This document shows, one piece after another, positions 3,542 to 53,112 of a stretch of DNA of 64,000 nucleotides. A model generated the notes under the pieces. The model made no database searches. It was not told where the DNA came from and saw nothing but the letters and a program-made list of their open reading frames with translations. Where the stretch lies: the IMG/VR virus record IMGVR_UViG_3300009163_000026, positions 1-64,000 of that record. The stretch is one strand, 5' to 3'. How positions within the stretch are numbered: the first letter of the stretch is position 1; each line of letters begins with the position of its first letter. The position numbers were made by a program, and so were the translations under genes. This DNA comes from a virus.

Positions 3542-4490
3542 GATACGAGAAGCAGTTTGCAGCTCTGCGTTGTTGTGGCCTGTAAAGACAGTCATTCAGT
3601 TATTTACCGGTATTGTCTCACCATCTACTGTATATAAGTGGGTAAATCAGCAGAATACACTTAACCACTCATATACCATGGAGGAGTGTTATAGTGAGTG
3701 GAAAAGGATCAAATCATATAGCGGTAGTTATGATGCAAGACCATCTCACAATAGAATTACCACGACATTTTTACCACACTTTTATAATATTGAGCAGGAG
3801 CTCTATAAAGATATAGTTATAAGAAAAAGACTGATAGAGAATCGAAAAAAATATTTACTTAAAGATAACTTTACATCGAGAGAGCTTTTACGTGGGTTTA
3901 AAATATCAGGAATACACACTGGTTATTCGCACTTCTCACCTTTATGGATTAAGCGATTTATTACCGATCTACAGGTAAAGACCGTTTACGACCCGTGTGG
4001 TGGTTGGGGGCACAGGCTAGTAGGGGCCGCGAGTTCAGGTTGTAATTATATTTATAATGATATATGGAAACTCTCATACAATGGTATTAAAAAAATTGTT
4101 AAGTTTTTAGATATACAAGTTACAACATATAATAACGATTGCACAAAGTTTATACCACAAGAGGATTATGATTGTGTTTTTACGTGTCCGCCATATTACA
4201 ATGTTGAAATATATGAAACCTCATTTAAGAGCTTAGAAATATATAATAACTTTATACACTTAATGCTAAAGAACGCTTGTAAACCATGTGTTAATTATAT
4301 TGGCGTTGTTATTAATTCCACCTATAAACATATTATACAAAATAATATACCTGATGATTTTGTTCTTTATGCAGATGAGACGCTAGGAAGTACTAGTGCT
4401 ATATCTCACTTCAACACCAAACAATCTACAAAAAGAGAAATGTTACTCATCTTTAAGAGGATTATTAGGAAAAAAGATACAGAAGATTAA
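3528..4490 (+). CDS. Amino-DNA methyltransferase (m6A/m4C type)
   Basis: SAM motif VYDPCGGWGHRL and catalytic FTCPPYY. Confidence 0.8.
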   Translation: MQSREIREAVCSSALLWPVKTVIQLFTGIVSPSTVYKWVNQQNTLNHSYTMEECYSEWKRIKSYSGSYDARPSHNRITTTFLPHFYNIEQELYKDIVIRKRLIENRKKYLLKDNFTSRELLRGFKISGIHTGYSHFSPLWIKRFITDLQVKTVYDPCGGWGHRLVGAASSGCNYIYNDIWKLSYNGIKKIVKFLDIQVTTYNNDCTKFIPQEDYDCVFTCPPYYNVEIYETSFKSLEIYNNFIHLMLKNACKPCVNYIGVVINSTYKHIIQNNIPDDFVLYADETLGSTSAISHFNTKQSTKREMLLIFKRIIRKKDTED

Positions 4491-4498
4491 ATATTAAT

Positions 4499-4894
4499 AT
4501 GGCACTAATAGGATTCAACAACCAAGCTCTTTCATCGTTTGATACACCGAGAAATCTTTTCTGGTCACTTTCAAATACCGGTACAACTAAAACAGTTGTG
4601 CTTACATCAGTAGGTGTTCATCAAAGCAAACAAATATATGGTGTAGCATTCAACTCCTTGACAGGTACAGCTGCGTCTTCATTTCAAAACTTATCAGTAG
4701 CTACCGGTACTGTTATTAATGTTGATAAAGCACATAATGGACAAAAGTTTGCAGTTCTATTTACTGATCATACATCTTCTCTCTTTACGTGTGTTACTGC
4801 ATCAGGTATGGGTACTGTTCAATCGCTTACAGCTAACGGCTTTGATACTAGCTTTCCTGAAATTCGTAGACTAGTGACTCTCGGTTACCTTTAA
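4499..4894 (+). CDS. Hypothetical late (probably virion) protein
   Basis: Ser/Thr-rich beta-type ORF preceded by TAAATA at 4488. Confidence 0.55.
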   Translation: MALIGFNNQALSSFDTPRNLFWSLSNTGTTKTVVLTSVGVHQSKQIYGVAFNSLTGTAASSFQNLSVATGTVINVDKAHNGQKFAVLFTDHTSSLFTCVTASGMGTVQSLTANGFDTSFPEIRRLVTLGYL

Positions 4895-4907
4895 TTTATA
4901 TTTATTA

Positions 4908-4948
4908 AACAAAAAAAGCCTAGTATTAAGTTACTAGGCTTTTTTGTT
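4908..4948. terminator. Bidirectional terminator
   Basis: aaaaaaagcctagta..tactaggctttttt between convergent genes. Confidence 0.85.
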
Positions 4949-4975
4949 AACTGGAGCTAGAAAGAGTGGAGTATA

Positions 4976-5221
4976 TTATGCAATGCCAAAATGGGTTTTA
5001 ACAGCGTTAACTACATCGTCATTTGTCCACTCTGCTGGAGTATCATAATTATCACCAGATAGAGCATCGAGCTCTATTCTCTCACCCTCTACGAATACTG
5101 CGACTTTACGTTGTGATGGAAAATCTATAATTCTCTCTATAGAGAGGGCAGTGATAGTTTTCCTTACTTCTGGTTGTACTACCACACTAAGTGGTGCTGT
5201 AAGATTGATATCTAAACTCAT
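4976..5221 (-). CDS. Hypothetical protein (start MSLDIN)
   Basis: TATAAATA 5 nt upstream of ATG 5221. Confidence 0.6.
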   Translation of the reverse strand: MSLDINLTAPLSVVVQPEVRKTITALSIERIIDFPSQRKVAVFVEGERIELDALSGDNYDTPAEWTNDDVVNAVKTHFGIA

Positions 5222-5258
5222 ACAAGTATTTATACGTACGTTATAGTTTCTCAACTAC

Positions 5259-6077
5259 TTAATATTTAAAAATATCATTATACCACTTAAAGTTAGTATC
5301 TATCCACTTACATATATCACTACCTAGAATATTTTTAGGCTTGTTATCTGTTAAAGTAAGCTTTGGTCGTATGTTATGATCACCAAAGATGCCATATAAA
5401 CTATCATCCTCCTTTGTTAGCTGATCAATATAGTTAAAGTTATGATGGTTATACACAGGCAACTCAAAGTAATTATATATTTTTTCAAGTTGTCTTTCAG
5501 GTGAATTACACAGATCCTCATATTTAATAAAGAGCATATGCTCATTGATACCTTGTTTAAATATCTCAGTTAACCGCTCTATAGCTAGTCCAAGTGGTTG
5601 AGTAGATAGATAGTGATCTACACGCTTTGCAGTAGTTGTATTAGCAAGCTGTGCGTGATTGACGATACCGGGATCATTCTCTGGAGCTTCACGGAATTTT
5701 TTCTCCATAGAAGTAATAATCTGCTTTAAATCTCTTACCATGCACACTACTTTAGGCTTCTCAGCTAGAGTGAATTCAAGTAAATTATAATGAATGCCCC
5801 AACCTCTTGACTTCTCTAAGACACACGGCTTATCGGTAATAGCGTCATAATAACCATATAGTCCTTGCTGACAGAATCCCTGAAAGCCCTTCCGCATTAG
5901 CTCAGCATCCTGCGCTTTAAATGTTGGATCATTACTATAGTTAGCTCTTGCACCATATATAAGTTCAAGAGTTCCTGAGGTAGGGGTAGAGTAAAAATTA
6001 GGATTTTGAGCTACTATATTTTGTAATAATGTAGACCCTGCGCGTGGTAGAGATGAGTTAAAGAATAATTGTTTCAT
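5259..6077 (-). CDS. Sulfotransferase family protein
   Basis: PAPS motif SLPRAGSTLL, EKSR.W, MVRD....I.S, IKYEDL..P. Confidence 0.88.
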   Translation of the reverse strand: MKQLFFNSSLPRAGSTLLQNIVAQNPNFYSTPTSGTLELIYGARANYSNDPTFKAQDAELMRKGFQGFCQQGLYGYYDAITDKPCVLEKSRGWGIHYNLLEFTLAEKPKVVCMVRDLKQIITSMEKKFREAPENDPGIVNHAQLANTTTAKRVDHYLSTQPLGLAIERLTEIFKQGINEHMLFIKYEDLCNSPERQLEKIYNYFELPVYNHHNFNYIDQLTKEDDSLYGIFGDHNIRPKLTLTDNKPKNILGSDICKWIDTNFKWYNDIFKY

Positions 6078-7019: not shown

Positions 7020-10000
7020 TTACCAATCAAACGAACAATTTTGTACAATTATGCCAATTTGACTCGTTATTGCAGTACTATCAACTAAAACAGCAGCAAC
7101 CAGACCTTTAGATGTAGTTGGTGCACCTGTTAAAGTGCCAAGTAGAGTAGAAGAAGAATTATACAAATATATTGTTCCACTTAAAATTTCAAGCCTATAC
7201 CCCTTATTATTATAACCATTTTGCCATGTATCTACAGTACTAGATGTTTGTAGTGCGTTCGTGCCGTTTGCCGTAACTATAGTCACGTTACCACTCAAAC
7301 ACTGTAAACCGACCCAACCTATAGATGAGCCTGCTCCTGCTATTATATGTGACGACAGACCAGCGGTAGCAGTTGAGCCGCTTAGCTCTCCGAAAATAAA
7401 CGCCCAATTTATACTGGTTGCAATGTTAAAACTTCGACTTACTGCTGCAAAGTTGCAATTAACCTTATTAGCGAAATCAATACCTGTGAATGTACCTGTT
7501 GGTGCAATACCAACATAATGCCTAGTGTTAGAAGAAAAGCTCGCCAACGCCTTACCTGCAGACGAGCCATTACCTGCTTCAACACGTAATACCGATCCTG
7601 CAGTCTGTATGCTACCGCCTGTAGTCGTAGTACTACTCCAGTAAGACCAGTTGTTAAATGAAATTTGTCGAAGAGGGCTTATAGCGTACCTAAAATCACC
7701 GTCACTACGTGTAATAAGACTCGCTGATAATGGTACACCAGTACCATTACTTGTTGGGCGAGTTGTAGATGAAAAGGTATAATTATTAGGCAGTGTTGTG
7801 GATAGACTGATGACACCATTCGTTACAACGATAGGCGTACTTGCTAACATTCCGAGATAAGTTTTTGCAGAAAGAGTACCTTGAACAGTAAGATCACCAC
7901 TTGTCTGTACATTATTCATATATGTAGTATTTGCTGCTGTAGATGTGAGACTAGATCCTATGGTAAAAGAATTTATATGACTAACTTGATTACTACAACC
8001 TCCAAGTATACCTGAATAGTTTCCTGTAGCTGTAATATTATTATTAAGTCCTCCAGCAACAATAGAGTAACAACTAGAAGTTGAATTATCCTGACCTCCA
8101 GCTACAGTAGAGTAATAACTAGAAGCTGAATTCCCACGTCCTCCAGTTATAGTAGACCAATAACCAGAACATGTAATTGTATTACCAAATCCTCCACCTA
8201 TTGTAGAATACAGTCCGCACGCCTTGTTTGTACTCCCACCGCCTATTGTGGCATAACTATTAGAAGCTGTATTAGTGCTTCCTCCACCTATAGTGGAGAC
8301 CCAGCCCCAAGCCTCATTACTATTTCCCCCACCAATAGTACTGTAACCACACTTAACACTATTATACGCTCCTCCACCAATAGCACCCCCAAATTGAGGG
8401 CCAGATACACAGACGCAATTGCAAAAGCCGCCGCCGATTGTATGGCAAGCATAATAACTACTAATAGTATTACTGCTACCGCCACCTATAGTATTAGATC
8501 CATAGTAGCAACTGCTGGTACATGTTAAGTTACACCATCCACCACCAATAGTGTCATGGTCACTTTTAGTAGTATTCCACCGTCCTCCAGCTATATTAGA
8601 ATAACTACCGCTAGCTGCATTACAAGACCCACCAGTTATAGTAGAATACTGACCATAAGCTATACTACTAAGACCTCCTAGTACACTAGAATATACACCA
8701 CAAGTAGTATTATAACACCCACCAGCTACAGTAGAGTAATCACCAGAAGCTGTATTACAATACCCACCACCTACGGTAGACATATACGCACAAGTTTTAT
8801 TAAAACATCCCCCAGCTATGGTAGAGTAGTAACCAGAAGCTGTATTAAACTTCCCACCCGCTATGGTAGACCCCGGACTAAACCAACAAATCGTATTCTC
8901 AAAACCACCGCCTATACTTGTGTAGGCGGTATAGTCACCACTACTTGTATTACAATACCCACCAGCTATATTAGAAAAACTACCGCAAACAGTATTATAA
9001 TACCCACCAGCTACATTAGAACCAGGCGTCCAGCAAATATTATTACTGCACCCGCCCGCTATACTAGAATAATCACTACAATTTACTTTATTACTAAGAC
9101 CGCCTACTACACTAGAATAGTTACCATAAACTGTATTATTACATCCACCAGCTACATTAGAATAAATGCAAGAAGCTGTATTAAAACCTCTTACTGGCTG
9201 AATTGAAGAAGTAGCATTAACAAGGGTATAAGCACCGCCCCCACCTCCTATTAATGTTAAAATATCAACACCATTTTTGAATATAGTACCTGTAACATTT
9301 AAGTTACCGTTCATCGTGCCGCCGTTAGCGAACTGCTTTGCAACAGAACCTCCTCCAGATGACATCTCGATGAGTCGTTTGAGTGCACTTATTTCTGTTG
9401 TAAATTTAGTACCAATAATCTTCTCTAACTCTGACTTAACGCCTTTGAGATCTACTTCTTGACTGCCATTAGATTGCTCAACAATAATATTAGGTACATC
9501 AACCTTAATGTTACTAATTTGCTCTAACAGTGCTTGCTTGCTCTCCTCTATGAGATTGATAAAATACTGCTTATTCTCTTCTGTAAGATCTGTTACTTTA
9601 GTTTCTACAAGATTAATTCTCTCATCGTAAAAGGTTATAATATTATCCTCTGCTAGAATAATTTTATCTTCGAGCTCCTTTATATTAGAGTCTAAACTAA
9701 TACTCTTTACCGTCAATCTATCGATTGAGTTGGTGACTACTCCGAGTTGCTCTGTTATATTTTTTGATACTGACTTAATCTTCTTATCTACTGATACAAC
9801 ATTCGCATCTACATTATGTATTAAAGCGTTGAACCTATCATCAGTATCAGTCGCACTCTTATCAACGGTCCGTTTTAATACATGTACTTCTTGCTCAACT
9901 AAAGTTGTATTTTTACCGGTTAAATCAACTTTATCTTCTGTAATAGATATTTGCTCAGTAAGGTCTTTCTTAAGTTTTGTTATATCTTTCTTAATGTCCG

Positions 10001-11261
10001 TTGAGATAAGACCGGAAATATTATGAATAGACTCTTGTAACTCAGTACGTACCGTGTCGAGCTTAGCGTCAGAATTATTAACAATATCTACTGCAGCATT
10101 TATTTCATCTTTAGCTGCATTAACAGTCCTCTCTACTACAGTAAATTTATTTGTAATAATATCTGCTGTTTTTTCTACAGCATCAATTTTGTTTTCTGTA
10201 AATTGTATTTTATCTAAGAGCTCTTCCTTTGTATTTGTAATGGTAGACTTAAGATCGTTACCTGTATATAAAATAGATTCTTCTAGTTGTGTCTTAACAT
10301 TACCGATACGGCTAAGAGCCTTATTGCTACTCTTGTTTATAAGATCGTTTAATTCAACGTTGGCCTGCTCTAAGCCATTCAGAGAACCACTGTATTCACC
10401 TAATATCTCTTTCATCTCCCCTTTCAACCGACTATCTCTTTGTTCGGTTAGCTTATTTAGGGAAGTTGTGATAGCTTCAAAACGAGAGGTAATATCCTTA
10501 TTTGTCTTCTTATTATTAGAGTCAATCTCTTTAAGCAGAACACCAGATAAGACATTTGTAGCGAGCTCATTTATCTTCTCACTAAATACTTTCTCAGCTT
10601 GCTCATTCTTGTCTTCTATGTCCTTAGACAAGCCATCTGATAAACTATCTAAAGACTCCTTAATAAACAAAACAAGTCTCGTCTTTTCACCTTCGTTGAA
10701 TTCATAAAACTCACTCTTTACATTTTCAACTAACGAGAGGAATTCATTTAGCAAGCTCTTCCTAGACTCACCTATCTCCTCATCAAGAATTTGCTGCTTA
10801 TCATTAAAAAATTTAGTAGTCTCTCTAAGCTTCTGCTGCTTGAGCTCCTTTACATATTGTTCTGCTGATTGCTTAGCTTGATGAATCTCTTTAAGAATAG
10901 ACTCCTTTTTCTCAAAGACAATATCCTCAATTTCATTCTCATGCTCTACAAACTGAATAATTGACTCCTTAGCCTCTTGTACAGCAGGTCCAACAAACGT
11001 AGAGTTAGCCTTGTTAAATAAAATTTCAAATTTGCCTCGTTGTAATACAAACGATGCCGTAAATTCCTTACCTTCCAATACTAGCGGAATATCTACGACA
11101 GGCGATCCCTTATATGTGGATACTTTTTCTGCAATAAACTTTTTCCCGTTTATCTCAAACTCAAAAACATCGAAAAAGACTTCATTGTAGTCTTTAACTG
11201 TTAAGATGTTAAGGTTTGAGCTAGTATAGGTAGGTACTACCTTTTCGCTAAACAGTCTCAT
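7020..11261 (-). CDS. Giant fibre/adhesin: coiled coil plus beta-helix repeats
   Basis: ~640 aa coiled coil, GGTMNGNLNVTG neck, many 14-aa YSTIGGGxxNTA repeats, distinct C-terminal domain; TATAAATA upstream. Confidence 0.7.
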   Translation of the reverse strand: MRLFSEKVVPTYTSSNLNILTVKDYNEVFFDVFEFEINGKKFIAEKVSTYKGSPVVDIPLVLEGKEFTASFVLQRGKFEILFNKANSTFVGPAVQEAKESIIQFVEHENEIEDIVFEKKESILKEIHQAKQSAEQYVKELKQQKLRETTKFFNDKQQILDEEIGESRKSLLNEFLSLVENVKSEFYEFNEGEKTRLVLFIKESLDSLSDGLSKDIEDKNEQAEKVFSEKINELATNVLSGVLLKEIDSNNKKTNKDITSRFEAITTSLNKLTEQRDSRLKGEMKEILGEYSGSLNGLEQANVELNDLINKSSNKALSRIGNVKTQLEESILYTGNDLKSTITNTKEELLDKIQFTENKIDAVEKTADIITNKFTVVERTVNAAKDEINAAVDIVNNSDAKLDTVRTELQESIHNISGLISTDIKKDITKLKKDLTEQISITEDKVDLTGKNTTLVEQEVHVLKRTVDKSATDTDDRFNALIHNVDANVVSVDKKIKSVSKNITEQLGVVTNSIDRLTVKSISLDSNIKELEDKIILAEDNIITFYDERINLVETKVTDLTEENKQYFINLIEESKQALLEQISNIKVDVPNIIVEQSNGSQEVDLKGVKSELEKIIGTKFTTEISALKRLIEMSSGGGSVAKQFANGGTMNGNLNVTGTIFKNGVDILTLIGGGGGAYTLVNATSSIQPVRGFNTASCIYSNVAGGCNNTVYGNYSSVVGGLSNKVNCSDYSSIAGGCSNNICWTPGSNVAGGYYNTVCGSFSNIAGGYCNTSSGDYTAYTSIGGGFENTICWFSPGSTIAGGKFNTASGYYSTIAGGCFNKTCAYMSTVGGGYCNTASGDYSTVAGGCYNTTCGVYSSVLGGLSSIAYGQYSTITGGSCNAASGSYSNIAGGRWNTTKSDHDTIGGGWCNLTCTSSCYYGSNTIGGGSSNTISSYYACHTIGGGFCNCVCVSGPQFGGAIGGGAYNSVKCGYSTIGGGNSNEAWGWVSTIGGGSTNTASNSYATIGGGSTNKACGLYSTIGGGFGNTITCSGYWSTITGGRGNSASSYYSTVAGGQDNSTSSCYSIVAGGLNNNITATGNYSGILGGCSNQVSHINSFTIGSSLTSTAANTTYMNNVQTSGDLTVQGTLSAKTYLGMLASTPIVVTNGVISLSTTLPNNYTFSSTTRPTSNGTGVPLSASLITRSDGDFRYAISPLRQISFNNWSYWSSTTTTGGSIQTAGSVLRVEAGNGSSAGKALASFSSNTRHYVGIAPTGTFTGIDFANKVNCNFAAVSRSFNIATSINWAFIFGELSGSTATAGLSSHIIAGAGSSIGWVGLQCLSGNVTIVTANGTNALQTSSTVDTWQNGYNNKGYRLEILSGTIYLYNSSSTLLGTLTGAPTTSKGLVAAVLVDSTAITSQIGIIVQNCSFDW

Positions 11262-11309: not shown

Positions 11310-11630
11310 TTACCTAATCGGATTAGAACTAAAGAATTGAGTCCTGTAGTATATCTTCCCTGCGGTTGCTGCTTTAGCAGAGACCTCACTAGCATTAGTA
11401 AGGCCGAGTATTGCTACTCTTTCACCAATATCTATTTGAAATGCAAACGGCTCAGCGCTAAACCCGTTATCATAAACACTAAGAAGGCCAGTGGTGGTGT
11501 TATGTATCGTAAGTTGCGAGCAAGGCTGTGTAGAGAGCTGAGTCATACTCGTATTAATAGTTAAATTAAATGATCTACATACATTACTATTATAAAAGGT
11601 AGAACCGTTATTACTTGTTGGTACAGGCAT
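11310..11630 (-). CDS. Hypothetical late protein
   Basis: 106 aa ORF, TAAATA 5 nt upstream. Confidence 0.55.
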   Translation of the reverse strand: MPVPTSNNGSTFYNSNVCRSFNLTINTSMTQLSTQPCSQLTIHNTTTGLLSVYDNGFSAEPFAFQIDIGERVAILGLTNASEVSAKAATAGKIYYRTQFFSSNPIR

Positions 11631-11651: not shown

Positions 11652-11683
11652 AAAAAACCCCGCTGTAATTAATTACAGCGGGG
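11652..11683 (-). terminator. Terminator after queF
   Basis: Palindrome ccccgctgtaatt/aattacagcgggg with U-tract on minus strand. Confidence 0.8.
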
Positions 11684-11698: not shown

Positions 11699-12643
11699 TT
11701 ACTGCTTAGGTGTCTTAACATGTAGGATAGTTTCATCACTTAATGTATAATGAAGTCGACTTTTATTAGAAACTCGTTCCGGGTTAATATCCCAACCTCC
11801 ACGCCTTGCATATAAACACTTTACAGATAATTCATCGGGTTGTAATACATCCCATAAGCGTTTATATATGGCCTCGCAAATCTCCTCATGAAAATGACAC
11901 TCATCACGAAATGATACAATATATCTTAGTAAGGAGATAGGATCAACAGTCTTCTTACCTTTAATTGTAATATAAACATCTCCAGTATCAGGCTGAGCTG
12001 TAACCCTACATCTCGATCTTAATAAGGCACTATGGTATCTATCCTTATCACTAACAACAGAATCAATTACAGTAAGTAGCTCCGGTGACTCAACATATAC
12101 ATCAAACACTTCATTCTCTATAGGATACTCATCTTCTAACGTAATGAATGAAGTCTTAAGTTCACGTTGATGTGACCACTCATTAGTTGCAAGAGTAAAC
12201 TCTCGAAGCGCTTCATAGTTAGAATGCACCTTAACAGCTACTTTAGTTTCAAGCAATTCAGAAAGATCTTTAATAGCTTTTTCTGTAATATTAGCAAGTA
12301 CCTCAGCTGCCGTTCTACCTAGCTTAGTCATACTAAACGAGTTAAAATAAAGCTTTGTCGATTTAGACTCAACAATATACTTACTACTACAATCATAAAC
12401 AAACTTACAAATACCGACTACAGGTAAACCATTATCAGTAAGACCTGTAACTTCATATCCATTCCAGGTATCACTACCTTCAAACGGAAGATCTTCATCT
12501 TCAAGACCGAGATGAGTTCTATTTGACTGACGAGGTTCGCGTACTAGTAATTGAGGATCATATACAGATGCATACTCTGATGATTTACCTAAATGCTTAC
12601 TAATGTTAGAATTATCTAATACTATTTGTTGTTGTTTTGCCAT
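11699..12643 (-). CDS. queF: NADPH-dependent preQ0 reductase (bimodular QueF)
   Basis: YDPQLL..PR, D.WNGYE, IVESKSTKLYFNSF, catalytic CRVT.QPD, FHEEICE, YARRGG.DINP. Confidence 0.92.
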   Translation of the reverse strand: MAKQQQIVLDNSNISKHLGKSSEYASVYDPQLLVREPRQSNRTHLGLEDEDLPFEGSDTWNGYEVTGLTDNGLPVVGICKFVYDCSSKYIVESKSTKLYFNSFSMTKLGRTAAEVLANITEKAIKDLSELLETKVAVKVHSNYEALREFTLATNEWSHQRELKTSFITLEDEYPIENEVFDVYVESPELLTVIDSVVSDKDRYHSALLRSRCRVTAQPDTGDVYITIKGKKTVDPISLLRYIVSFRDECHFHEEICEAIYKRLWDVLQPDELSVKCLYARRGGWDINPERVSNKSRLHYTLSDETILHVKTPKQ

Positions 12644-12649
12644 AAATTA

Positions 12650-13243
12650 TTATATTTTAGTCTTATAAGGATGCAAGTTTCTATTAAACACTGTGTTTAA
12701 TCCCATTGTCTCGAACTTACTCATCATAAACGTCATTCGATCTCTAACTGGACCTGCAACTCTTAAAACCTTTGATTGCGGAATAGTAGACATATACTTT
12801 TCGAACAGTTCGATTATTTGATTCCTAAATTCTACATTAATACTTCTCTCACCATCATTATCAACCGGTACGTCTTCTGGTTGCGTATACACAATGAGAT
12901 CATACTTATCTATAGTATTATCAAATACCCAACGCGCATGAGTATAAGCCCCCATAGAAACACTTCCATACTCACACAGCCAATGAGTATAAACTAAACC
13001 ATCTAAAGAGCATCTATCAAGAACAGTAGGTATATCGCGCTTAGTATAAGCATTCCGCAAATGCTCACCTGCAATCATCATTTGCGTTACATCATTACCA
13101 CCCTCATTAATCGGTAAGTCATACTCCCTCTTTACAAGTCTTGTAATCTCAGGAATATAGTTCCACTCAGGAATTATATCTTGACATACCTTTAGTAGAG
13201 TACTCTTACCCGTACTTTGCGCACCACTAAAGCTAATTAACAT
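12650..13243 (-). CDS. P-loop nucleotide (dNMP-like) kinase
   Basis: GAQSTGKST Walker A and LDR...D...Y motif. Confidence 0.7.
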   Translation of the reverse strand: MLISFSGAQSTGKSTLLKVCQDIIPEWNYIPEITRLVKREYDLPINEGGNDVTQMMIAGEHLRNAYTKRDIPTVLDRCSLDGLVYTHWLCEYGSVSMGAYTHARWVFDNTIDKYDLIVYTQPEDVPVDNDGERSINVEFRNQIIELFEKYMSTIPQSKVLRVAGPVRDRMTFMMSKFETMGLNTVFNRNLHPYKTKI

Positions 13244-13800
13244 ACAGTATTATAGTACTCTTTAGTAAAAAAATCAATCCATGATGTTAACGATGTTCGA
13301 CGCGCAACATTATATGTCTCCTCTAATGAGGTACAGTTAACATAGGATAGCTGTGACGCACATATTATGTCACCGCAATCTACTTCTGCAGTAACCTTAT
13401 GGATTACACTACCCACATACATAAAGTCAGAGATATTCGCCCACACTTTATCAACCGGATCCTTACCTTTAAGTTGCGGGTAGTAATTAATCAACCCAGG
13501 ATGTCCGTTGTATATTGTAAACTCCTCGCATATCTCAGGCGGTATAATATTAAGCCATCCATGCAAGGTAATAATATCGTAGTCACCTAAAAAATTTCTG
13601 AAGTAATCAAGCTTCGCAGCAGGGGTAAGCTTTCTATAAGCCCGCCACATTACCTTCTTGCAATTTTGCTCAATGCGTTCATCTACCTTATTATCAACTT
13701 TAACATTATCAGAAATAACAAGGTCAGGGTATCTACCTATAGCTTCAGACAAATTACATATCTCTGAACCCGTCTGTGAAAAGAGAGCTAACCAGGTCAT
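13237..13800 (-). CDS. PurN-like formyltransferase (candidate DpdN)
   Basis: ALFSQTGS, LHGWL.II, YNGHPGL...P..KG.DP, GSVIH.VT.EVD.G.II. Confidence 0.8.
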   Translation of the reverse strand: MTWLALFSQTGSEICNLSEAIGRYPDLVISDNVKVDNKVDERIEQNCKKVMWRAYRKLTPAAKLDYFRNFLGDYDIITLHGWLNIIPPEICEEFTIYNGHPGLINYYPQLKGKDPVDKVWANISDFMYVGSVIHKVTAEVDCGDIICASQLSYVNCTSLEETYNVARRTSLTSWIDFFTKEYYNTVC

Positions 13801-14606
13801 CCGTTACAGATCTTACTAAATTCTTCAATATTATAAAAAATATCGTCTTCTTGTTCTCCCGTTAGTTCGCAATTAATTAGATCTGCAAGCATTACTTTCG
13901 GCTTATTATACAGGCCAATACCTTTTAGGTACCGTTGATTTAGTATACCAGCAACAACAGGGTTTGAGGTATCAACGCTACGAATATTTGTAATATTCTT
14001 ATAATACTGATACTTAAATTCACGAGCTAAAGAGCATCCAAGTAAGTGAGTTGGTTTTTCATTATTCCAGATACCATCCGCTATCAACATACTAATAAAC
14101 TTACGACGACCATCGGCCATCCTCTCAAGCGTAGCTAGAGCAGGGTCTATACTCGTCGACTTACCTATGACTTGGTAATATGAATAATCAAACGAAATAG
14201 CAATATAATCAGAATACTCTTCCATATATCTATAGCATTTTACCAACTCATCATACGTCTTACCCTGCACTACCCCCACCTTAAGCCCAGGTAAATGCGG
14301 GTAGTTCATTACAAACTTATGATAAGATGCAATAGTATCGTTGCACTCTTCCAGAACATCAGGTATGATATAGTAAGTTGGCTTTAGCTCCTCAATATAT
14401 TTAGCAAACTTTGAACCATCAAATGCAACACCGAGCTCGAAGATTGAGTTATCAAGCATTACTTCACGTCCTAGGAATAGTGTGGATTTAAAAAAGGTAT
14501 AGTATTTAGGATGAGACTCGAAGAGGTGAACGAGTGCGTACTGAAAGTCAGTCTTTCGACCGACTTCTCCTAATATAGAAATAGGCGCTTCATGTGCAAT
14601 TAACAT
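13797..14606 (-). CDS. TGT-fold protein (candidate DpdA3-like deazaguanine transglycosylase)
   Basis: MLDNS, IPDV, GVVQG, HLLG, SVDTS motifs in TGT order; operon with queF. Confidence 0.65.
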   Translation of the reverse strand: MLIAHEAPISILGEVGRKTDFQYALVHLFESHPKYYTFFKSTLFLGREVMLDNSIFELGVAFDGSKFAKYIEELKPTYYIIPDVLEECNDTIASYHKFVMNYPHLPGLKVGVVQGKTYDELVKCYRYMEEYSDYIAISFDYSYYQVIGKSTSIDPALATLERMADGRRKFISMLIADGIWNNEKPTHLLGCSLAREFKYQYYKNITNIRSVDTSNPVVAGILNQRYLKGIGLYNKPKVMLADLINCELTGEQEDDIFYNIEEFSKICNG

Positions 14607-17730: not shown

Positions 17731-18375
17731 TTATAAAATCTGATCAATTAGTCCGAACTCTAAGCATTTAGCAGCATCAAACCAAAGATCGTGCTTTAAT
17801 ATCTCATCGATTTGCTTCATTGGTACTTTTGTGTACTGTTTATATACATCCTTTATCATTTTCATAATACGGCGATTGCTTTCCATCTCATCTTCCATTT
17901 CAGAAAACTTACCGTAGACGCCAGATGATAGTTGATGAATTAGCATCATTGAATTTTTACCTATAAACCGCTTCTTACCTGCTACAGAAATAATTGTTGC
18001 AGCTGAGGCGGCAGCTCCATCGATATAAGTATGTACATCACAACTAAGACTTCTAATTGCATCTAAGATAGCCATACCTGCAAATACAGAGCCGCCATAT
18101 GAATTAATTCTTAGCTTAATGTGTGGTGTAAAATCAGGCCCAAGAAAATTGAGTGTATTTTTAAGCTTAATATCAAGTTCGTAGAGTATAGTATTAAGAT
18201 CGAGAGCAGATTGCTCTGTTATATCTGAATAAAAGAAAATACAATTTTCTACTACCCGTATATTACTATTTACAGCTCCGCCAGATGCAGCTGTATTAAT
18301 AAAGATCTGCTGATTTTTATTTTCTGCATCTAATTCAGCTTCCTCGTTACCATTTAGGTTATATTTCCATTTCAT
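17731..18375 (-). CDS. clpP: ClpP-like protease
   Basis: INSYGGSVFAG, AASAATII, MLIHQ, DLWFDA..CLEFGLID. Confidence 0.88.
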   Translation of the reverse strand: MKWKYNLNGNEEAELDAENKNQQIFINTAASGGAVNSNIRVVENCIFFYSDITEQSALDLNTILYELDIKLKNTLNFLGPDFTPHIKLRINSYGGSVFAGMAILDAIRSLSCDVHTYIDGAAASAATIISVAGKKRFIGKNSMMLIHQLSSGVYGKFSEMEDEMESNRRIMKMIKDVYKQYTKVPMKQIDEILKHDLWFDAAKCLEFGLIDQIL

Positions 18376-18384: not shown

Positions 18385-20034
18385 TTACGATTCACAGTTT
18401 GCACAATTCAAAATATTTCTAGCAAGCTCTTGCGAAGGATTCGCAGAACGTTGATAATATAATGACTTGATGCCCTCTCTCCAAGCATATATAAGCAACT
18501 CGCTTACTTCTTTTGGTTTTGCATTAGGGGGGATCATCAGATTAATTGATTGTCCTTGATCAATAAACTTCTGCCTTTGTGCAGCTTGTATGATAATCTC
18601 TTTTTGTGAGATCTCACCAAAAGTTTTAAACACATCCTTTTCTTCACGAGTAAGAAATTTTATGTGCTGGACAGAACCACCATGGGAAAGAATATCCTTC
18701 CACACATCAAGACTATCTTTATCCTTCAACTTCAACACCTTGGCTAAGTAAGGGTTTTTATAAGTGAACTTACCTTTAGCAAGATCCTTCACAAAGTAAT
18801 TACTATTGTGTGGTTCAATAGATGGAGATACTTGACCTAAAATAAACGAACTCGAGGTAGTAGGAGCAATTGCAAGCGTAGTTGTATTACGTCTTTTATA
18901 ACCTTCAAGTAAAGGAGGCTCTCCGAATATGGTTGCAAGCTCTGTAGTAGCTAGATCTGCTCTGTGTCTAATAGTATGCCAGATATCATTGTTGAGCATC
19001 TTTGCTTCTATTGATTCAAATGGTACAAGCTTTGATTGCAGAAAGGAATGCCAGCCTAAAACACCTACTCCTAATGCTCGTTGATTAATAGCGAACTTTC
19101 TAGGCGCTTCCATAAACGGCACACCTTCTGTCTTATGAATAAACTCAGTCATTACTGCATCTAAGAAGTATACAAGCGTTTCAATTGCATCAGTAGTCTC
19201 GAGTTCATCCCAACGTTCAAGATTAATAGAAGAAAGGTCACAAACAAACGATTCATCATCCTGATTGGAAAGGAATATCTCTGTACAAAGATTAGAATTA
19301 TTAATCTTAAGTCCTTTATCCTTATAGACTTGTGGAGCTTGATTATTAACATTATCAGTAAAGAAAATATACGGGTAGCCTGATTCAAAGCGCTTCTTAA
19401 TAACAAGACCCCAAATCCTTCGTTTAGACTTATCACCCTCTAACATACTCTCCATCCACTCATCGGTAATTGTAACTCCGATAGACAAATCTTGAATATC
19501 ATTACCTTCACCGCGAATAGCTAGAAACTCTTCAATATCACCGTGATCAATAGGAAGATAAGCAGCAAACGAACCACGACGAACATTACCTTGAGATACA
19601 TAGTTAACAAGAGAATCAAATACGGTTAGCTGATGATGCACACCTGTAGCTGTACCACCGGAACTAATAGCTGAACCTCGAGGTCTGATAGCGCCAAAGT
19701 AACCAGAGGTACCACCGCCAATCTTAGACATAGCACCAACCTCACCTAACTTACAGAGAATACTATTCATATCATCAGGAATATAACTTCCGAAGCATGA
19801 AATAGGAGCACCACGCTCTCTACCAAAGTTACTCCAGATAGGAGTAGATAGAGAATAAAAACCACGATGCATATACGATTCAAACTTATCAGCAAAACCG
19901 GCTATACTCAGATATCTTTCAGCAGCATCAGCAATATCTCTAATGCGTTGCTCAGGTGTCTCATCTTTCGTCAGGTAGTCTCTCTCTAGAAATTTTCTAG
20001 AGTCCTTATTAAGCCAGTATATATCTTTACTCAT
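18385..20034 (-). CDS. nrdA: Ribonucleotide reductase class I alpha (short, no ATP cone)
   Basis: STPIWSN, PISCF, RRGSFAAY, SNLCTEI, AIAPT.SSS, IDQGQS.NL, KSLYYQRS. Confidence 0.95.
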   Translation of the reverse strand: MSKDIYWLNKDSRKFLERDYLTKDETPEQRIRDIADAAERYLSIAGFADKFESYMHRGFYSLSTPIWSNFGRERGAPISCFGSYIPDDMNSILCKLGEVGAMSKIGGGTSGYFGAIRPRGSAISSGGTATGVHHQLTVFDSLVNYVSQGNVRRGSFAAYLPIDHGDIEEFLAIRGEGNDIQDLSIGVTITDEWMESMLEGDKSKRRIWGLVIKKRFESGYPYIFFTDNVNNQAPQVYKDKGLKINNSNLCTEIFLSNQDDESFVCDLSSINLERWDELETTDAIETLVYFLDAVMTEFIHKTEGVPFMEAPRKFAINQRALGVGVLGWHSFLQSKLVPFESIEAKMLNNDIWHTIRHRADLATTELATIFGEPPLLEGYKRRNTTTLAIAPTTSSSFILGQVSPSIEPHNSNYFVKDLAKGKFTYKNPYLAKVLKLKDKDSLDVWKDILSHGGSVQHIKFLTREEKDVFKTFGEISQKEIIIQAAQRQKFIDQGQSINLMIPPNAKPKEVSELLIYAWREGIKSLYYQRSANPSQELARNILNCANCES

Positions 20035-20039
20035 ATAAA

Positions 20040-21017
20040 TTAAAATAAATCGTCTTCGCTGAATGATTGACTCTTCTTAGAATACTCAACAGGACGTGAG
20101 TGAAAAAAGTCGGTCATACTATTTCCTAATAGGTCTTCAGAGAACCACATTGTAGACTCAAGAATAGTAGAATCTACTTCAAAGGGCTTAGGAAGACCAA
20201 TTTGTGTAAGCGATTCGTTAATGCGATTTTTAATAAATTCCTTAAGAATCGGAGCAGATAATCCTGGCTCATCTATACCGTTAATCATCCAATCAATAAT
20301 TTTACTTTCTGATTTAAATGCCTCGTGAGCAGCAGTTACAATCCGATCCGTTAACTCCTCATCAAACAGCTCAGGATGTTCATCACGTATAGTATTGATA
20401 ATCTGAATACCTACAAGAGCGTGAATGTTTTCTTCATTACGGGTATACTTAACCTGTTGATCAGTATCCTTTAAGACATTCTTAAAACGAGCAAAATGAT
20501 TGATAACGTAAAACTGTGAAAACAGAGAAACATTCTCCACGAATAAAGTAAACAGCGTCAACGCGTAGAGGTATTGCTTCTTCGAGTCCTTGTAGAACCT
20601 ATGGGTATACTTACGGAGATACTTGACTCTCCCCTGTATCCATTCTAGCTTAAGGTTCTCTTCAAAAATATCCTCTAACTCGAGAACACAGAGCAAACGT
20701 TCATAAGCGTTGTTATGAATAACCTCAGTATTAGACATAACGATACCGAGATCATATAGAGCTGGGTGTGGTAAGTTTTCACCGAGCTTAGCCCAGAATG
20801 TCTTAACTGCTACTTCAATCTGACCAATGGCAGAGAGAGTGCGAACTACGATTTCTCTTTCCTGATCAGTCAGCTCAACTTTAAACTGCTGAACATCAGA
20901 CTTAAAGTTAAACTCCTTATCGGTCCAAAAACCATTATGCATTGCTTCAATGAACTGCTCAGTCCATGGATACAAATTTGGCTTGCGACTAATCTGCTCT
21001 TCAAAAATACTAGGCAT
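20040..21017 (-). CDS. nrdB: Ribonucleotide reductase class I beta
   Basis: FW...E, E.IH..AY, ENVSLFSQF, EENIH, DFF..RPVEYSK. Confidence 0.95.
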   Translation of the reverse strand: MPSIFEEQISRKPNLYPWTEQFIEAMHNGFWTDKEFNFKSDVQQFKVELTDQEREIVVRTLSAIGQIEVAVKTFWAKLGENLPHPALYDLGIVMSNTEVIHNNAYERLLCVLELEDIFEENLKLEWIQGRVKYLRKYTHRFYKDSKKQYLYALTLFTLFVENVSLFSQFYVINHFARFKNVLKDTDQQVKYTRNEENIHALVGIQIINTIRDEHPELFDEELTDRIVTAAHEAFKSESKIIDWMINGIDEPGLSAPILKEFIKNRINESLTQIGLPKPFEVDSTILESTMWFSEDLLGNSMTDFFHSRPVEYSKKSQSFSEDDLF

Positions 21018-21658: not shown

Positions 21659-22096
21659 TTAGGATTCTTCCCATGGAAATGTTAACCACGTTTCTTCAGG
21701 TACAGAAAACCCATAACAGTTAACCATATGAGATGATTTGTCTTTAACAAATAGTGAAGCATAGTCAAAGGTGTGAATAGTATTACTATACATACCTTTA
21801 AATATATTAAACGTATTACCTGTATCGCATATATCATCTACTACTAAAAATTTCGAAGGAGCTGTTGGTAGTGTCACTGGCTGATAAATGGTCCATTTGC
21901 CTGTGTGTATAGTATTATTATATGTATTGATTCCAAAAACCAATACCTTTTTGTTAAGTTTATATGCTAGCATAGTAGCAGGTATAAGACCTCCACGACC
22001 AATACCGATAATATAATCGTAGTTTGAACCAACCCGCTGCGCCAGTAAATCTATGATAAATGACATATATTCATAACTTACAGCTTTTTTATTCAT
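21659..22096 (-). CDS. Purine phosphoribosyltransferase (Gpt-like)
   Basis: GIGRGGLIPA, LVVDDICDTGNT PRPP motif, W..FPWE. Confidence 0.88.
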   Translation of the reverse strand: MNKKAVSYEYMSFIIDLLAQRVGSNYDYIIGIGRGGLIPATMLAYKLNKKVLVFGINTYNNTIHTGKWTIYQPVTLPTAPSKFLVVDDICDTGNTFNIFKGMYSNTIHTFDYASLFVKDKSSHMVNCYGFSVPEETWLTFPWEES

Positions 22097-24915: not shown

Positions 24916-26025
24916 ATGTCGGATAAGCGTGATTACTATGTAGTGCTAGAGGTAGATCGTAATGTCGATGCAGAGGGTATTAAAAAAGCATATCGTCGAC
25001 TTGCTATTAAGCATCACCCAGATAAAAATCAAGGTGATAGTGCTGCAGAAGAGAAATTCAAAGAGTTAGGTGAAGCATATGAGATTCTAAGTGATCAAGA
25101 TAAGCGAGCTGCTTACGATAGACACGGTCACGCTGCCTTCGTAGGTGGAGGTAGACCGCAAAGTCACTCACATCAAGATATTTTCGCTCAGATGTTCGGT
25201 GGTGGATTTGGTAGCTTCTTTGGCGGTCACGCTGGGCCTAGACAGCAGAAGGGTGAAGATATACGTTGTGATATATCTCTTAATCTAGAAGAAGTAATAC
25301 ACTCAACTGCAAAAGAAATTACCATTCCACGGTTCGTTGGCTGTGAGGCGTGTAGTTCAAACGGTACACAGTCGACAAATGGCCTACAGACTTGTACGAC
25401 GTGCAGTGGTAACGGTGTTGTTATTCAACAGTCTGGTATGTTTGTCCAGCAAACCACATGCCCTGAATGTCGTGGTGCGGGTGAGATAATTACAGACCCA
25501 TGTAACGTTTGCAGCGGTGAAGGCCGTGTACAATGTAACACTCAGATACAGGTGAATATACCTGCAGGGGTTGATGCAGATACGCGTATGTGTATGCAAG
25601 GCAATGGTAACAGTGGTAGAAGAGGTAGTCCAAGTGGCGACCTCTATATACACACTAATATTGTGCAACACAGTGTCTTTAGGAGAGAAGGAACTGAGCT
25701 GTTCTGCGATGTACTGTTGGATATTAAAACCGCTACCCTAGGCGGTACACTAACCGTGCCTACGTTTGAAGGAGGAGTAGTAATAAAAATACCAACTGGT
25801 ACGCAAAGCGGTTCTGTGTTTAAGTTAAGTCATAGAGGTTCACCAATGATTAATTCAAGCGATAGAGGTAGTCTGAATATTACAGTACAGGTCGAAATAC
25901 CAGTAGAGCTTGATAGCTATCAACAAGAGTTATTAAATGCATTTACTAACTCACTAGCACCAGTAAACACCCCTTTACATAAAGGCTTTACTACAGTAGC
26001 GGAAAGATTCCTGAACAAGATTTAA
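24916..26025 (+). CDS. dnaJ: Chaperone DnaJ
   Basis: J-domain HPDKN, G/F region, four CxxCxGxG-type repeats, C-terminal domain. Confidence 0.95.
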   Translation: MSDKRDYYVVLEVDRNVDAEGIKKAYRRLAIKHHPDKNQGDSAAEEKFKELGEAYEILSDQDKRAAYDRHGHAAFVGGGRPQSHSHQDIFAQMFGGGFGSFFGGHAGPRQQKGEDIRCDISLNLEEVIHSTAKEITIPRFVGCEACSSNGTQSTNGLQTCTTCSGNGVVIQQSGMFVQQTTCPECRGAGEIITDPCNVCSGEGRVQCNTQIQVNIPAGVDADTRMCMQGNGNSGRRGSPSGDLYIHTNIVQHSVFRREGTELFCDVLLDIKTATLGGTLTVPTFEGGVVIKIPTGTQSGSVFKLSHRGSPMINSSDRGSLNITVQVEIPVELDSYQQELLNAFTNSLAPVNTPLHKGFTTVAERFLNKI

Positions 26026-40869: not shown

Positions 40870-41781
40870 TTAGATAGCATTTGATAACGTCTTTTTAAAG
40901 ACAGCGTTCTCTCCTCGCCCGTAGCGTTTTAGTTTACCAGCATCTTGAAGCTCTTTTAATGCAAGGTATGCTTGAGAAGGTGTGAGATTGAATTGCTGCA
41001 TTACTGCTTGCTTAGTAATATTAGGCGGATCTAGTTCAAGAATCGCGTTAGCGATCTCAGCTTTACGATCACCCTTACTCTGCGATCTCGCAACTTCTTT
41101 TTTACCTGTAACCTCAATACCACGTGAAGTCATAATAGCCGAATAATCTCCAATTCTCCCGTAGCGATTCTTATAGACGCTCAATACGCGTTGAGTCTCG
41201 TCGCCATCAGGATCTAGAGTAATCATAAAGTTAACATCAACACTATGCGGCACTAAAGTACTGCCTTTCAATTGATTACCAGACTTAGTAAAGTGCATTA
41301 CAAAGACAACAGCGCAATTCGTACGCTTAGCAGCGCTAATTAAAGTCGTAACAGCATAGCGTTCAAGCTCGGAGCGATTGAGCTTATGCTCAGTAGTAAG
41401 CGCTTGAAAAGAATCGACAACGAGAATATCGAGATCATCCATAGCAGCAGCAAGACTATCAATATCAGTCTCGTTAGCAATTTGAACATTCTGAACGTTC
41501 AATCGCTTGCAAGTATAAGCAACTTGCTGCATACTCTCTTCACCGCTCGCATAGCCTACGCTATAGCCATTATTAGCGAGAGCTTCAGTTAATTGAAGCA
41601 ACGCTGTAGACTTACCCGCTCCTGCAGCTCCTGTAAACGTCATTGCACATCCAGGAAGAATTCCATCTCCGAAGAGATTATCAAACTCTTCAATTCCAGT
41701 TTTCATTCGGCAATAGAATGAGCTTGGAATCTCAATATCTGATACCTTTCTAAACGACGATTTAGTTAAATTTAAGTTCAT
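40870..41781 (-). CDS. RadA/Sms-like RecA-family ATPase with C-terminal wHTH-like region
   Basis: GAAGAGKST, SGEES, VVDSFQ, H.TKSG..KGS..PH.VD, KNRYG. Confidence 0.8.
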   Translation of the reverse strand: MNLNLTKSSFRKVSDIEIPSSFYCRMKTGIEEFDNLFGDGILPGCAMTFTGAAGAGKSTALLQLTEALANNGYSVGYASGEESMQQVAYTCKRLNVQNVQIANETDIDSLAAAMDDLDILVVDSFQALTTEHKLNRSELERYAVTTLISAAKRTNCAVVFVMHFTKSGNQLKGSTLVPHSVDVNFMITLDPDGDETQRVLSVYKNRYGRIGDYSAIMTSRGIEVTGKKEVARSQSKGDRKAEIANAILELDPPNITKQAVMQQFNLTPSQAYLALKELQDAGKLKRYGRGENAVFKKTLSNAI

Positions 41782-43964: not shown

Positions 43965-43970
43965 AATTCA

Positions 43971-44867
43971 TTAATATTTAATTACCTCTATAGGTATGGG
44001 AAATACAGGGACTTGAATAACAGGTTTTGTTTCATAATCTCCGTTTGGTAAGATACTTACAACTTCTTGCCAATCAGGAGGATCAGAGCCTTTAATCATA
44101 AGCTTATCACCTACTTTAAACTTATAATCTGCAGGTGCTAATAAATTAGGGGTAAGTGTCGGATTCTCTTTCTGTATTCTTTCTATCTCACGAGCATCTT
44201 TTAACATTAGAGTATATAATCTTTCTGCAGAGCTGCCCTTCACCATATACCTCTTCCCAGTGAAGAATACCGGAAACTGTGTAAGACCATCTGCACCACA
44301 TAACATACCGTCCTCGGGCGGTTTGAGACCATATGTATGCTCTAAATGATAATTCATCTCATAATCTGTAGCGATATTCCAAAGCCGGATTGGTCGCTTG
44401 TCATGGTCAAAGAGTACTATAGCTTGTCGTCCTCGCTTACGATCAAACGTTTGATTAAAAATATGATAAACTTCATGCGCGAGAACAAACGCTATTGGAT
44501 TATTTTGGTCAAGTATTTTAAAGCCCTTGTCACTCAGTTGTACACTACCTTTACCAATCTCGAGCATAAAATCAGGGTTAATATAAAGATTACGTTTATC
44601 ATCTACGGCCATAGTAGGTACATCAAAAGTTATTTGAATACTCATTTGTCTAAGGAGAAATCCAAAGTATGGATGAGTGTTATCCATATGATCTCTGAGT
44701 GCTGCTATTAAAGATTGTACAACGGTTGGATTATAATCAGAATGTCCAGGTGTATTGCTCTCATTAATAGCTTGTTTATAACGACGGGTAATGACTTGCT
44801 TACTCGGTAATGGTCTCTTATAAAGCTCATTTATAAGAAGGTTATATTGATTATTAAACTTAAGCAT
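43971..44867 (-). CDS. Zn metallopeptidase-like (DUF2201 N-terminal-like)
   Basis: TMAVD...INPDF, FVLAHEVYH, WNIATDY..N. Confidence 0.8.
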   Translation of the reverse strand: MLKFNNQYNLLINELYKRPLPSKQVITRRYKQAINESNTPGHSDYNPTVVQSLIAALRDHMDNTHPYFGFLLRQMSIQITFDVPTMAVDDKRNLYINPDFMLEIGKGSVQLSDKGFKILDQNNPIAFVLAHEVYHIFNQTFDRKRGRQAIVLFDHDKRPIRLWNIATDYEMNYHLEHTYGLKPPEDGMLCGADGLTQFPVFFTGKRYMVKGSSAERLYTLMLKDAREIERIQKENPTLTPNLLAPADYKFKVGDKLMIKGSDPPDWQEVVSILPNGDYETKPVIQVPVFPIPIEVIKY

Positions 44868-44870
44868 ATA

Positions 44871-53101: not shown

Positions 53102-53112
53102 TTTTATAAATT

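Follow-up and report, generated by a model that had tools for sequence, protein, structure and literature searches.

The stretch of DNA examined here (the window) is the first 64 kb of the 86,855-nt IMG/VR contig IMGVR_UViG_3300009163_000026, a virus contig with a CheckV completeness of ~41%, so that 59% of the genome is missing. On its minus strand lie four open reading frames (ORFs) encoding the 7-deazaguanine transglycosylase DpdA3, the PurN-like formyltransferase DpdN, a P-loop kinase and the preQ0 reductase QueF. We describe this cassette, compare it with the related system of Flavobacterium phage immuto_2-6A, whose DNA contains formylated preQ1 (fdPreQ1), and discuss the route by which the modified base may enter the DNA. 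The four genes and the signals that flank them are as follows:

13797..14606, minus strand: dpdA3, minimal 7-deazaguanine transglycosylase of the tRNA-guanine transglycosylase (TGT) fold, 269 aa, assigned by orthology and fold
13237..13800, minus strand: dpdN, PurN-like formyltransferase, 187 aa, assigned by PF00551 and orthology
12650..13243, minus strand: P-loop nucleoside/nucleotide kinase of the AAA_28 family, 197 aa, assigned by PF13521
11699..12643, minus strand: queF, bimodular NADPH-dependent preQ0 reductase, 314 aa, assigned by PF14819 and PF14489
14613..14641, minus strand: promoter-like site TTGAGT-17-TATAAT, sigma-70-like with 10/12 matches, just 5' of the dpdA3 ATG
11658..11683, minus strand: intrinsic terminator, 11-bp stem with 7 GC pairs and then a T-run, directly after the queF stop

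The four ORFs fill positions 14606..11699, and the junctions between them are, in order, a 4-nt overlap, a 7-nt overlap and a 6-nt gap. An earlier note on this DNA had described overlapping or closely spaced TGT-like, PurN-like, kinase and queF genes, and the ORFs agree with it to the nucleotide. The note had also placed the genes under one promoter and one terminator. The terminator part stands, as the hairpin predicted to close the operon is strong and convincing. The promoter is suggestive by position only: there are 18 promoter-like sites in the region against 15.7 in shuffles, which is not above chance. A blastn search of the cassette against 50,697 phage records gave no match, and the relationships described below are visible at the protein level only. 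Just past the terminator there is a 106-aa ORF (11310-11630, minus strand) with no family match, which is found at the same position in the closest relatives (L004/L092, L014-L018, L046, L063, L071; 44-63% identity) and not in others.

The 269-aa protein has no Pfam or NCBIfam match. It is 46% identical to the immuto DpdA3 over 99% of its length and 42% identical to gp056 of Campylobacter phage CP220 over 100%, and it matches phrog_19058 (E 8e-52). A tblastn search of the phage records returned only the Flavobacterium immuto phages, in which the matching gene is annotated as 'DNA guanine transglycosylase', the Campylobacter CP220 group (~42%), and two distant matches of 25%. Matches to an Argonaute PAZ domain and other proteins, obtained when the protein alone was run against the PDB with phmmer (E > 0.01), were rejected as spurious. 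A family profile gave a weak match to DpdA (E 0.097), and it was the fold search that decided. The AlphaFold2 model made from 46 diverse relatives (predicted local distance difference test, pLDDT, 96.9; predicted template modelling score, pTM, 0.92) has as its top 50 Foldseek matches only tRNA-guanine transglycosylases or the DpdA structure 7ui4 (best E 1.8e-7, probability 1.00, TMq 0.52-0.66).

Three aspartates, D52 (in LDNSxFEL), D83 and D212 (in DTSNP), are invariant in the 46 diverse DpdA3 members, and the HLLG...DTSNP region aligns with HLLG...SIDSTTP of 7ui4. These residues probably correspond to Asp95 (the general acid/base), Asp130 and Asp256 (the nucleophile) of Salmonella Montevideo DpdA, with D52/F56 matched to Asp95/Phe99 by motif spacing (+4). 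Since DpdA3 keeps the catalytic aspartates, base-exchange chemistry is expected. With the Salmonella Montevideo DpdA/DpdB system (7UI4; PMC10164549) the phage system shares the TIM-barrel TGT fold, the catalytic Asp pair, the stacking Phe and a nucleotide-hydrolysing partner. The bacterial DpdA, however, is ~400 aa long and has four insertions as well as a CxCx2Cx22H Zn site, none of which is found in the 269 aa of DpdA3. The partner DpdB is a ParB-like ATPase rather than a nucleoside/nucleotide kinase, and DpdA modifies <0.1% of G at specific sites. The structural Zn site is conserved in both DpdA and TGT, and in DpdA it pins the insertion Ins8, which is part of the DpdA-DNA model (PMC10164549). 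A CxCxxC Zn motif is present in 0 of the 46 DpdA3 family members, and the window protein has five scattered Cys and ends right after the barrel. As modelled, DpdA3 is essentially a bare TGT barrel that lacks the Zn/insertion module of its DNA- and tRNA-acting relatives. Attempts to demonstrate DpdA3 activity in E. coli failed (PMC10516641).

The DpdA3 family comprises 3,303 protein clusters (E <= 0.001, among those scored) with 1,313 representatives at 50% identity, and in IMG/VR there are at least 543 matches; the family recurs in freshwater metagenomes. Two metagenomic homologues, P0395 and P0256, carry additional domains: one of 634 aa with LAGLIDADG and intein-splicing domains is probably interrupted by an intein, and one of 475 aa has a NUMOD3 homing-endonuclease motif at its C-terminus.

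The 187-aa protein matches the PF00551 formyltransferase family above the cut-off and is 38.9% identical to the immuto DpdN (YP_010114479) over 94% of its length, the immuto phages being the sole matches among the phage records. A profile of 16 DpdN orthologues was aligned to E. coli PurN by hhalign with 97.2% probability (E 4e-11). The residues N98, H100 and D141 of DpdN align with the PurN catalytic triad N106/H108/D144 and are invariant in the 16 sequences. The alignment begins at the N-terminus, where a strongly conserved SQTGSE loop of DpdN falls on the SGNGSN loop of PurN. In PurN this loop binds the 5'-phosphate of glycinamide ribonucleotide (GAR); a literature search on the residues concerned gave no source, and the parallel is offered as a lead and not as a result. 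DpdN was defined by its being encoded together with a DpdA and the whole FolE-to-QueF pathway (PMC10516641). Here DpdA3 and QueF are adjacent, and FolE, QueD, QueE and QueC are off the 41%-complete contig but present in the syntenic relatives G001 and G002.

QueF matches PF14819 and PF14489 (E 2e-30 and 1e-19) and, against the NCBIfam equivalog TIGR03138, scores 231 bits, which is under the cut-off of 293, in keeping with a diverged phage copy. Relative to the Vibrio cholerae QueF 3bp1 (E 4e-40) it keeps the nucleophilic Cys (SRC), VESKSTKLY (the ESKSxKLY QueF motif), QPD and HFHE. The QueF_N and QueF domains, the catalytic Cys and the motif E(S/L)K(S/A)hK(L/Y)(Y/F/W) are all present.

The kinase scores 44.3 bits against PF13521 (AAA_28; cut-off 27) with the whole model covered, has the Walker A motif GAQSTGKS, and is 33.5% identical to immuto gp203. 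Its model (pLDDT 86) was compared with ~48,000 PDB representatives by VIA-align. The best structural match is the ribosylnicotinamide kinase (RNK) domain of NadR (6gye, Z 18.0, root mean square deviation 3.1 A over 179 residues; 8x7f, Z 17.2), followed by human deoxyguanosine kinase (Z 15.2) and by thymidylate and deoxyadenosine kinases (Z ~14-15), and Foldseek returned the same families. Sequence profiles reach the PDB kinases only weakly (thymidylate kinase 2pbr, E 0.03). The protein matches phrog_2107 'thymidylate kinase' (E 1e-17), but there is no match to Pfam Thymidylate_kin. Homology to these structures slightly favours a nucleoside 5'-kinase over a deoxynucleoside monophosphate (dNMP) kinase. 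The earlier note had assigned to the kinase the step from modified dNMP to deoxynucleoside triphosphate (dNTP), which fits less well with these comparisons, as the closest solved relatives are nucleoside kinases (NadR RNK and deoxyguanosine kinase) and dTMP kinases come next. The NadR RNK domain (6GYE, 8X7F) belongs to the same Pfam family, but the identity is only 14-16%; moreover, the phage kinase stands alone without the nicotinamide mononucleotide (NMN) adenylyltransferase domain, and its context is 7-deazaguanine and not NAD metabolism. Beyond the P-loop the kinase family has many invariant polar residues (PE-TR, DRCS, DGERS..R), which fit a specific small-molecule pocket.

To examine what accompanies DpdA3, 80 IMG/VR loci with DpdA3 at 51-70% identity were collected, 77 of which have >=700 nt of downstream DNA. 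The kinase is found downstream of DpdA3 on the same strand in 77/77 of them, at a median distance of 9 nt. QueF comes next in 75 loci, and only 24 have DpdN. These counts indicate a conserved core of DpdA3, kinase and QueF, with DpdN as an optional insert, present in this phage. Within the phage records, homologues of the kinase are confined to Flavobacterium immuto and Campylobacter phages, and all four immuto and most of the Campylobacter records with a kinase homologue also have DpdA3 hits. A distant DpdA3-like gene of Chryseobacterium phage MA9V-3 has a P-loop kinase directly upstream. There are also natural fusions that join the kinase to DpdA3 (P0390), DpdA3 to DpdN (P0290, P0293), and DpdA3 to QueF (P0393, P0394, P0396). 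The sequence evidence thus places the kinase as a core partner of DpdA3, and not, as had been thought from the window, as a dedicated feature of this phage, since immuto (gp203), CP220 and the 77 related loci have it too. Its operon position, the 77/77 linkage and the fusion argue for a 7-deazaguanine (deoxy)nucleoside or nucleotide as its substrate rather than nicotinamide riboside.

Several loci depart from this arrangement. In L090 (IMGVR_UViG_3300032093_013297), positions 653-1987 encode a DpdA3 (51% identity) and then a diverged kinase (29% identity). Neither QueF nor DpdN occurs within 7 kb, a phosphoribosyltransferase (PRTase) is nearby, and this locus may direct a different 7-deazaguanine derivative. 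In L095 (Weizmannia phage Youna2, OM293949), positions 4399-5717 hold a DpdA3-like gene that is distant (25% identity), matches DUF6610/DpdA4 of Pfam weakly and comes after queC-queD-queE-folE. A 183-aa protein overlapping its start has only a weak P-loop (Septin) match and may be another kinase partner. A family A DNA polymerase gene comes directly next. In L003 (8791-14839, in G001), dpdA3 and dpdN are separated by an insert of ~6 kb with odd cargo for a phage, namely a CHASE2 adenylate/guanylate cyclase, a FecR-like protein, the curli secretion proteins CsgG and CsgF, and a DUF3307 protein; dpdA3-dpdN gaps of similar size are found in L019-L021, L042, L053 and L085.

The closest characterized system is that of immuto_2-6A, in which liquid chromatography-mass spectrometry found fdPreQ1 at 345,000 per 10^6 nt and no deoxyguanosine (dG) peak (PMC10516641). 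The two phages have the same genes in the same order, and DpdA3, DpdN, the kinase and QueF are 46%, 39%, 34% and 43% identical to gp206, gp204, gp203 and gp202, respectively. The immuto_2-6A record reads dpdA3, a small ORF, dpdN, 'thymidylate kinase' and queF, whereas here the genes are contiguous or overlapping without the extra ORF. Both have a Gpt-like PRTase, and the catalytic residues of the cassette enzymes are retained. The systems differ in that folE, queD and queE are directly upstream of the cassette in immuto_2-6A but far off in the relatives of the present phage, the phage backbones are different, and the DNA content was measured in immuto and is predicted here from the genes. In the Campylobacter CP220 group (Firehammervirus), dADG replaces all dG, the DpdA3 gp056 is followed immediately downstream by the AAA_28 kinase gp057, and an extra protein with HD and AAA_33 kinase domains is encoded upstream; there is no QueF or DpdN beside this DpdA3, and the pathway ends at the amide (ADG).

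The gene-for-gene match to immuto_2-6A agrees with the link drawn previously between a DpdA3 plus DpdN set and fdPreQ1. The cassette is almost certainly another member of the known DpdA3/DpdN/QueF fdPreQ1 system, as judged by sequence. Because of the orthology to the immuto_2-6A system, we also consider it probable that fdPreQ1 replaces dG in the virion DNA of this phage.

The genes for the supply of preQ0 are absent from the sequenced part of the genome. QueC, QueD (PTPS), FolE (GTP cyclohydrolase I) and radical-SAM genes were found neither in the window, as had been noted before, nor on the rest of the 86,855-nt contig, to which the genome-wide search was confined, and with tblastn none of the immuto proteins QueD, QueE, FolE and gp208 (a hydrolase) had a match on the contig. 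The syntenic relatives G001 (IMGVR_UViG_3300030419_007641; 196,877 nt, 93% complete) and G002 carry QueC, QueD and FolE, and G001 also carries a probable QueE. In both, these genes are tens of kilobases away on the gp23 side, and the two share the local order PRTase, nrdB, nrdA, clpP, tail genes, dpdA3, ..., queF, gp23. Since gp23 is at 1152-2615 in the window, the corresponding region would fall beyond the left end of the contig, and the lack of folE, queD, queE and queC is best read as contig truncation and not as true absence.

Two further features of nucleotide metabolism lie near the operon:

21659..22096, minus strand: Gpt-like (xanthine-guanine) phosphoribosyltransferase, PF00156, 7 kb from the operon
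18385..21017, minus strand: class I ribonucleotide reductase (nrdA 18385-20034, nrdB 20040-21017), beside the PRTase, as nucleotide-metabolism context

The PRTase aligns over its full length with the xanthine phosphoribosyltransferase (XPRT) structures 5xtk/1a95 (E 1.5e-11) and is 29% identical over 146 aa to immuto gp211, which is inside the immuto queE-folE cluster. The order PRT-nrdB-nrdA-clpP-...-dpdA3 is also found in L003/L004 and other loci. The PRTase may be an accessory enzyme with an inferred link to the pathway; it could salvage the released guanine under any model or make a 7-deazaguanine ribonucleotide. A Pfam scan of 38 further window ORFs turned up neither an HD, MazG or Nudix domain nor another nucleotide kinase.

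The reduction of preQ0 to preQ1 by QueF, the exchange of guanine for another base by TGT-fold enzymes, and the formylation of a primary amine from formyl-folate by PurN-type enzymes are established enzymology. From the gene identities, orthology, synteny, DpdA3-kinase linkage and folds we infer the substrates of the enzymes, the order of the steps and the DNA content as follows. The genes folE, queD, queE and queC, on the unsequenced part of the genome, would supply preQ0, and QueF would reduce this free base to preQ1. DpdA3, as a stripped-down TGT barrel, would exchange guanine for the 7-deazaguanine base, and DpdN would formylate the aminomethyl group with a formyl-folate donor. Both reactions would take place on a free deoxynucleoside or deoxynucleotide, and the AAA_28 kinase would phosphorylate the modified (deoxy)nucleoside or nucleotide and feed the product toward the dNTP pool ahead of replication. 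The released guanine would be recycled by the Gpt-like PRTase, and the end product would be phage DNA with dG replaced by fdPreQ1.

We regard such a pre-replicative route at the nucleoside or nucleotide level as plausible and unproven, with the chances about evenly balanced, and it contradicts the published conclusion. The more specific proposal that DpdA3 is a free (deoxy)nucleoside/nucleotide:7-deazaguanine transglycosylase and not a DNA transglycosylase, which together with the kinase, and with DpdN acting on a phosphorylated intermediate, feeds a 7-deazaguanine dNTP, is put forward a little more tentatively, at somewhat less than even. The pre-replicative route is favoured by the nucleoside/nucleotide-kinase fold of the partner, which is invariably linked and occasionally fused to DpdA3; by the HD and second kinase domains that flank DpdA3 in CP220; by the lack of the Zn/Ins8 module, which leaves DpdA3 a bare barrel; by the PurN-like N-terminal loop of DpdN; and by the extent of replacement, as all three DpdA3 phages analyzed show complete replacement of G, whereas the other subfamilies (DpdA1, DpdA2, DpdA4) reach <=~30%, together with the detection of the ADG nucleoside in CP220-infected cells (PMC10516641).

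A number of points weigh against this proposal. The fold of the kinase model cannot separate a nucleoside from a nucleoside monophosphate (NMP) substrate, and the lead of Z 18 over 15 is modest. As related phages, the 77 loci do not count as independent events, and each of the fusions is a singleton on a short contig, the kinase-DpdA3 fusion being one sequence on a 2.9-kb contig. No dGTP-removing enzyme (HD, MazG) or second kinase was found on the contig, from which 59% of the genome is missing. To our knowledge, polynucleotides are the substrates of all characterized TGT/DpdA superfamily enzymes. The bacterial DpdA needs a separate ATPase, DpdB (PMC10164549), and a P-loop partner might do something other than act as a kinase. 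The only paper on DpdA3 (PMC10516641) concludes that insertion is post-replicative, and for the present uncultured phage both the fdPreQ1 prediction and the route are read from genes.

The strongest alternative keeps the same module and product and follows the published model, in which DpdA3 swaps guanine for preQ1 in finished DNA and DpdN formylates dPreQ1 in the DNA. The P-loop protein would then be an accessory, either an ATPase that, like DpdB, powers the transglycosylation of DNA, or a kinase for salvage or pool balancing that is dispensable for insertion. Post-replicative insertion has been held for all DpdA subfamilies, since every 7-deazaguanine phage has a DpdA (PMC10516641), and the retention of the DpdA catalytic Asp pair and base-stacking Phe in DpdA3 would be in keeping with it, as would the polynucleotide substrates of the known enzymes, the dependence of DpdA on an ATPase and the lack of a dGTPase on the contig. 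The partner, however, has a small-molecule kinase fold with many invariant pocket residues and is unrelated to the ParB-like DpdB, DpdA3 is without the module that belongs to the DpdA-DNA model, HD and second-kinase domains flank DpdA3 in CP220, and the subfamilies that stop at about 30% of G have no such partner in the published description. We consider insertion into finished DNA a serious contender, although a distinctly less than even one.

A second alternative is that the modified nucleotide arises at the ribonucleotide level. Here the PRTase would make the (formyl-)preQ1 ribonucleoside monophosphate with phosphoribosyl pyrophosphate (PRPP), the kinase would convert it to the diphosphate, NrdAB would reduce it, and the dNTP would be incorporated, with DpdA3 only mopping up residual G in the DNA or the nucleotide pool. 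The Gpt-like PRTase is conserved here, in the syntenic relatives and in the immuto deazaguanine cluster, and NrdAB adjoins it. PurN acts on a ribonucleotide, and the alignment of DpdN to it starts at the N-terminal loop. But the PRTase is within 8 kb of DpdA3 in only ~1/4 of the 80 loci (those also have nrdA nearby, and most have DpdN), whereas the kinase is always beside DpdA3. The PRTase is equally explained by salvage of the guanine from base exchange, the kinase is closer to nucleoside than to NMP kinases, and acceptance of such a substrate by the ribonucleotide reductase is hypothetical, so that we consider this route improbable.

Finally, it is very improbable that these are auxiliary metabolic genes, with QueF making preQ1 for queuosine-tRNA, the kinase serving NAD salvage and the PurN-like protein serving purine synthesis: the JGI name of the kinase family ('nicotinamide riboside kinase'), the PurN-like label given to the formyltransferase by PHROG and record annotations, and the TIGR03138 score under the cut-off would suit this, but each gene of the cassette has its orthologue in the cassette of a phage with demonstrated fdPreQ1 DNA, translation of the four genes is coupled, DpdA3 is found naturally fused to each of its three partners, and it is without the Zn site conserved in tRNA TGTs.

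Pre-replicative replacement of a base is well established in other phages, as in T4, where hydroxymethyl-dC is made with gp42, the dNMP kinase gp1 and gp56, and in the Z-genome phages with PurZ, DatZ and MazZ. The pre-replicative route proposed here for fdPreQ1 would be a functional analogy only, in that complete base replacement is combined with phage-encoded nucleotide kinase and pool enzymes, as there is no homology to the enzymes of the cassette. In the T4 and Z-genome pathways an existing base is modified, whereas here the modified base would come by TGT-fold base exchange, and no dGTP-removing enzyme was found on the contig. A literature search found no pre-replicative 7-deazaguanine pathway.

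The gene set itself is ordinary and adds another environmental copy to those of the DpdA3/DpdN fdPreQ1 system already published. The value lies in the comparison, as the kinase accompanies DpdA3 without exception in the loci examined, yet is absent from the paper that defines the DpdA3 phages and names DpdN (Cui, Hutinet et al., PMC10516641), in which a kinase is mentioned 0 times. If the swap does take place on free nucleotides, the account of 100% guanine replacement in these phages would need to be rewritten, and the TGT fold and superfamily would gain a new substrate class. It would also be the first case of a 7-deazapurine genome made by a pre-replicative route, and the post-replicative model of DpdA3 phages would be overturned. 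The enzymes could then also serve for the enzymatic production of 7-deazaguanine dNTPs.

The capsid gene at 1152-2615 is gp23-like (PF07068, E 2e-88), in line with the T4-like assignment made in the earlier note. Its identity to any cultured phage is only ~33%, the nearest being cyanomyophages. The cassette 31-mers were found in freshwater and lake metagenomes of at least 14 studies from 2017-2025, and a single DNA contig of another sample covers all four cassette genes at ~96.6% identity. Contigs from RNA libraries align at ~92-96% with stretches of queF, of the kinase/dpdN region and of dpdA3; DNA carry-over is possible and transcription is not claimed. By these sequences the phage is an uncultured freshwater member of a T4-like (gp23-type) lineage without a cultured relative.

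The virus also carries a chaperone/protease set consisting of a full-length DnaK (PF00012, 813 bits), a complete DnaJ (J, CXXCXGXG and C-terminal domains) and ClpP, which were assigned by Pfam:

48378-50246, minus strand: DnaK gene
24916-26025, plus strand: DnaJ gene
17731-18375, minus strand: ClpP gene

An adjacent trio on the minus strand (42867-46847) encodes a MoxR-type AAA_5 ATPase (44871-46847), a DUF2201 putative metallopeptidase (43971-44867) and a weak VWA protein (42867-43964), and a KaiC/RecA-like ATPase is encoded at 40870-41781. A sulfotransferase-family protein (PF13469/PF00685; 5259-6077, minus strand) has the capsid region on one side and a 1,413-aa ORF of unknown function (7020-11261) on the other. 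Four tRNA genes are found in 53025-55902 on the minus strand (Arg-TCT, Met-CAT, Gly-TCC and Leu-TAA). Beyond the window, positions 72926-83863 of the contig (plus strand) contain an ORF of 3,645 aa that is preceded by ORFs of 982 aa and 225 aa.

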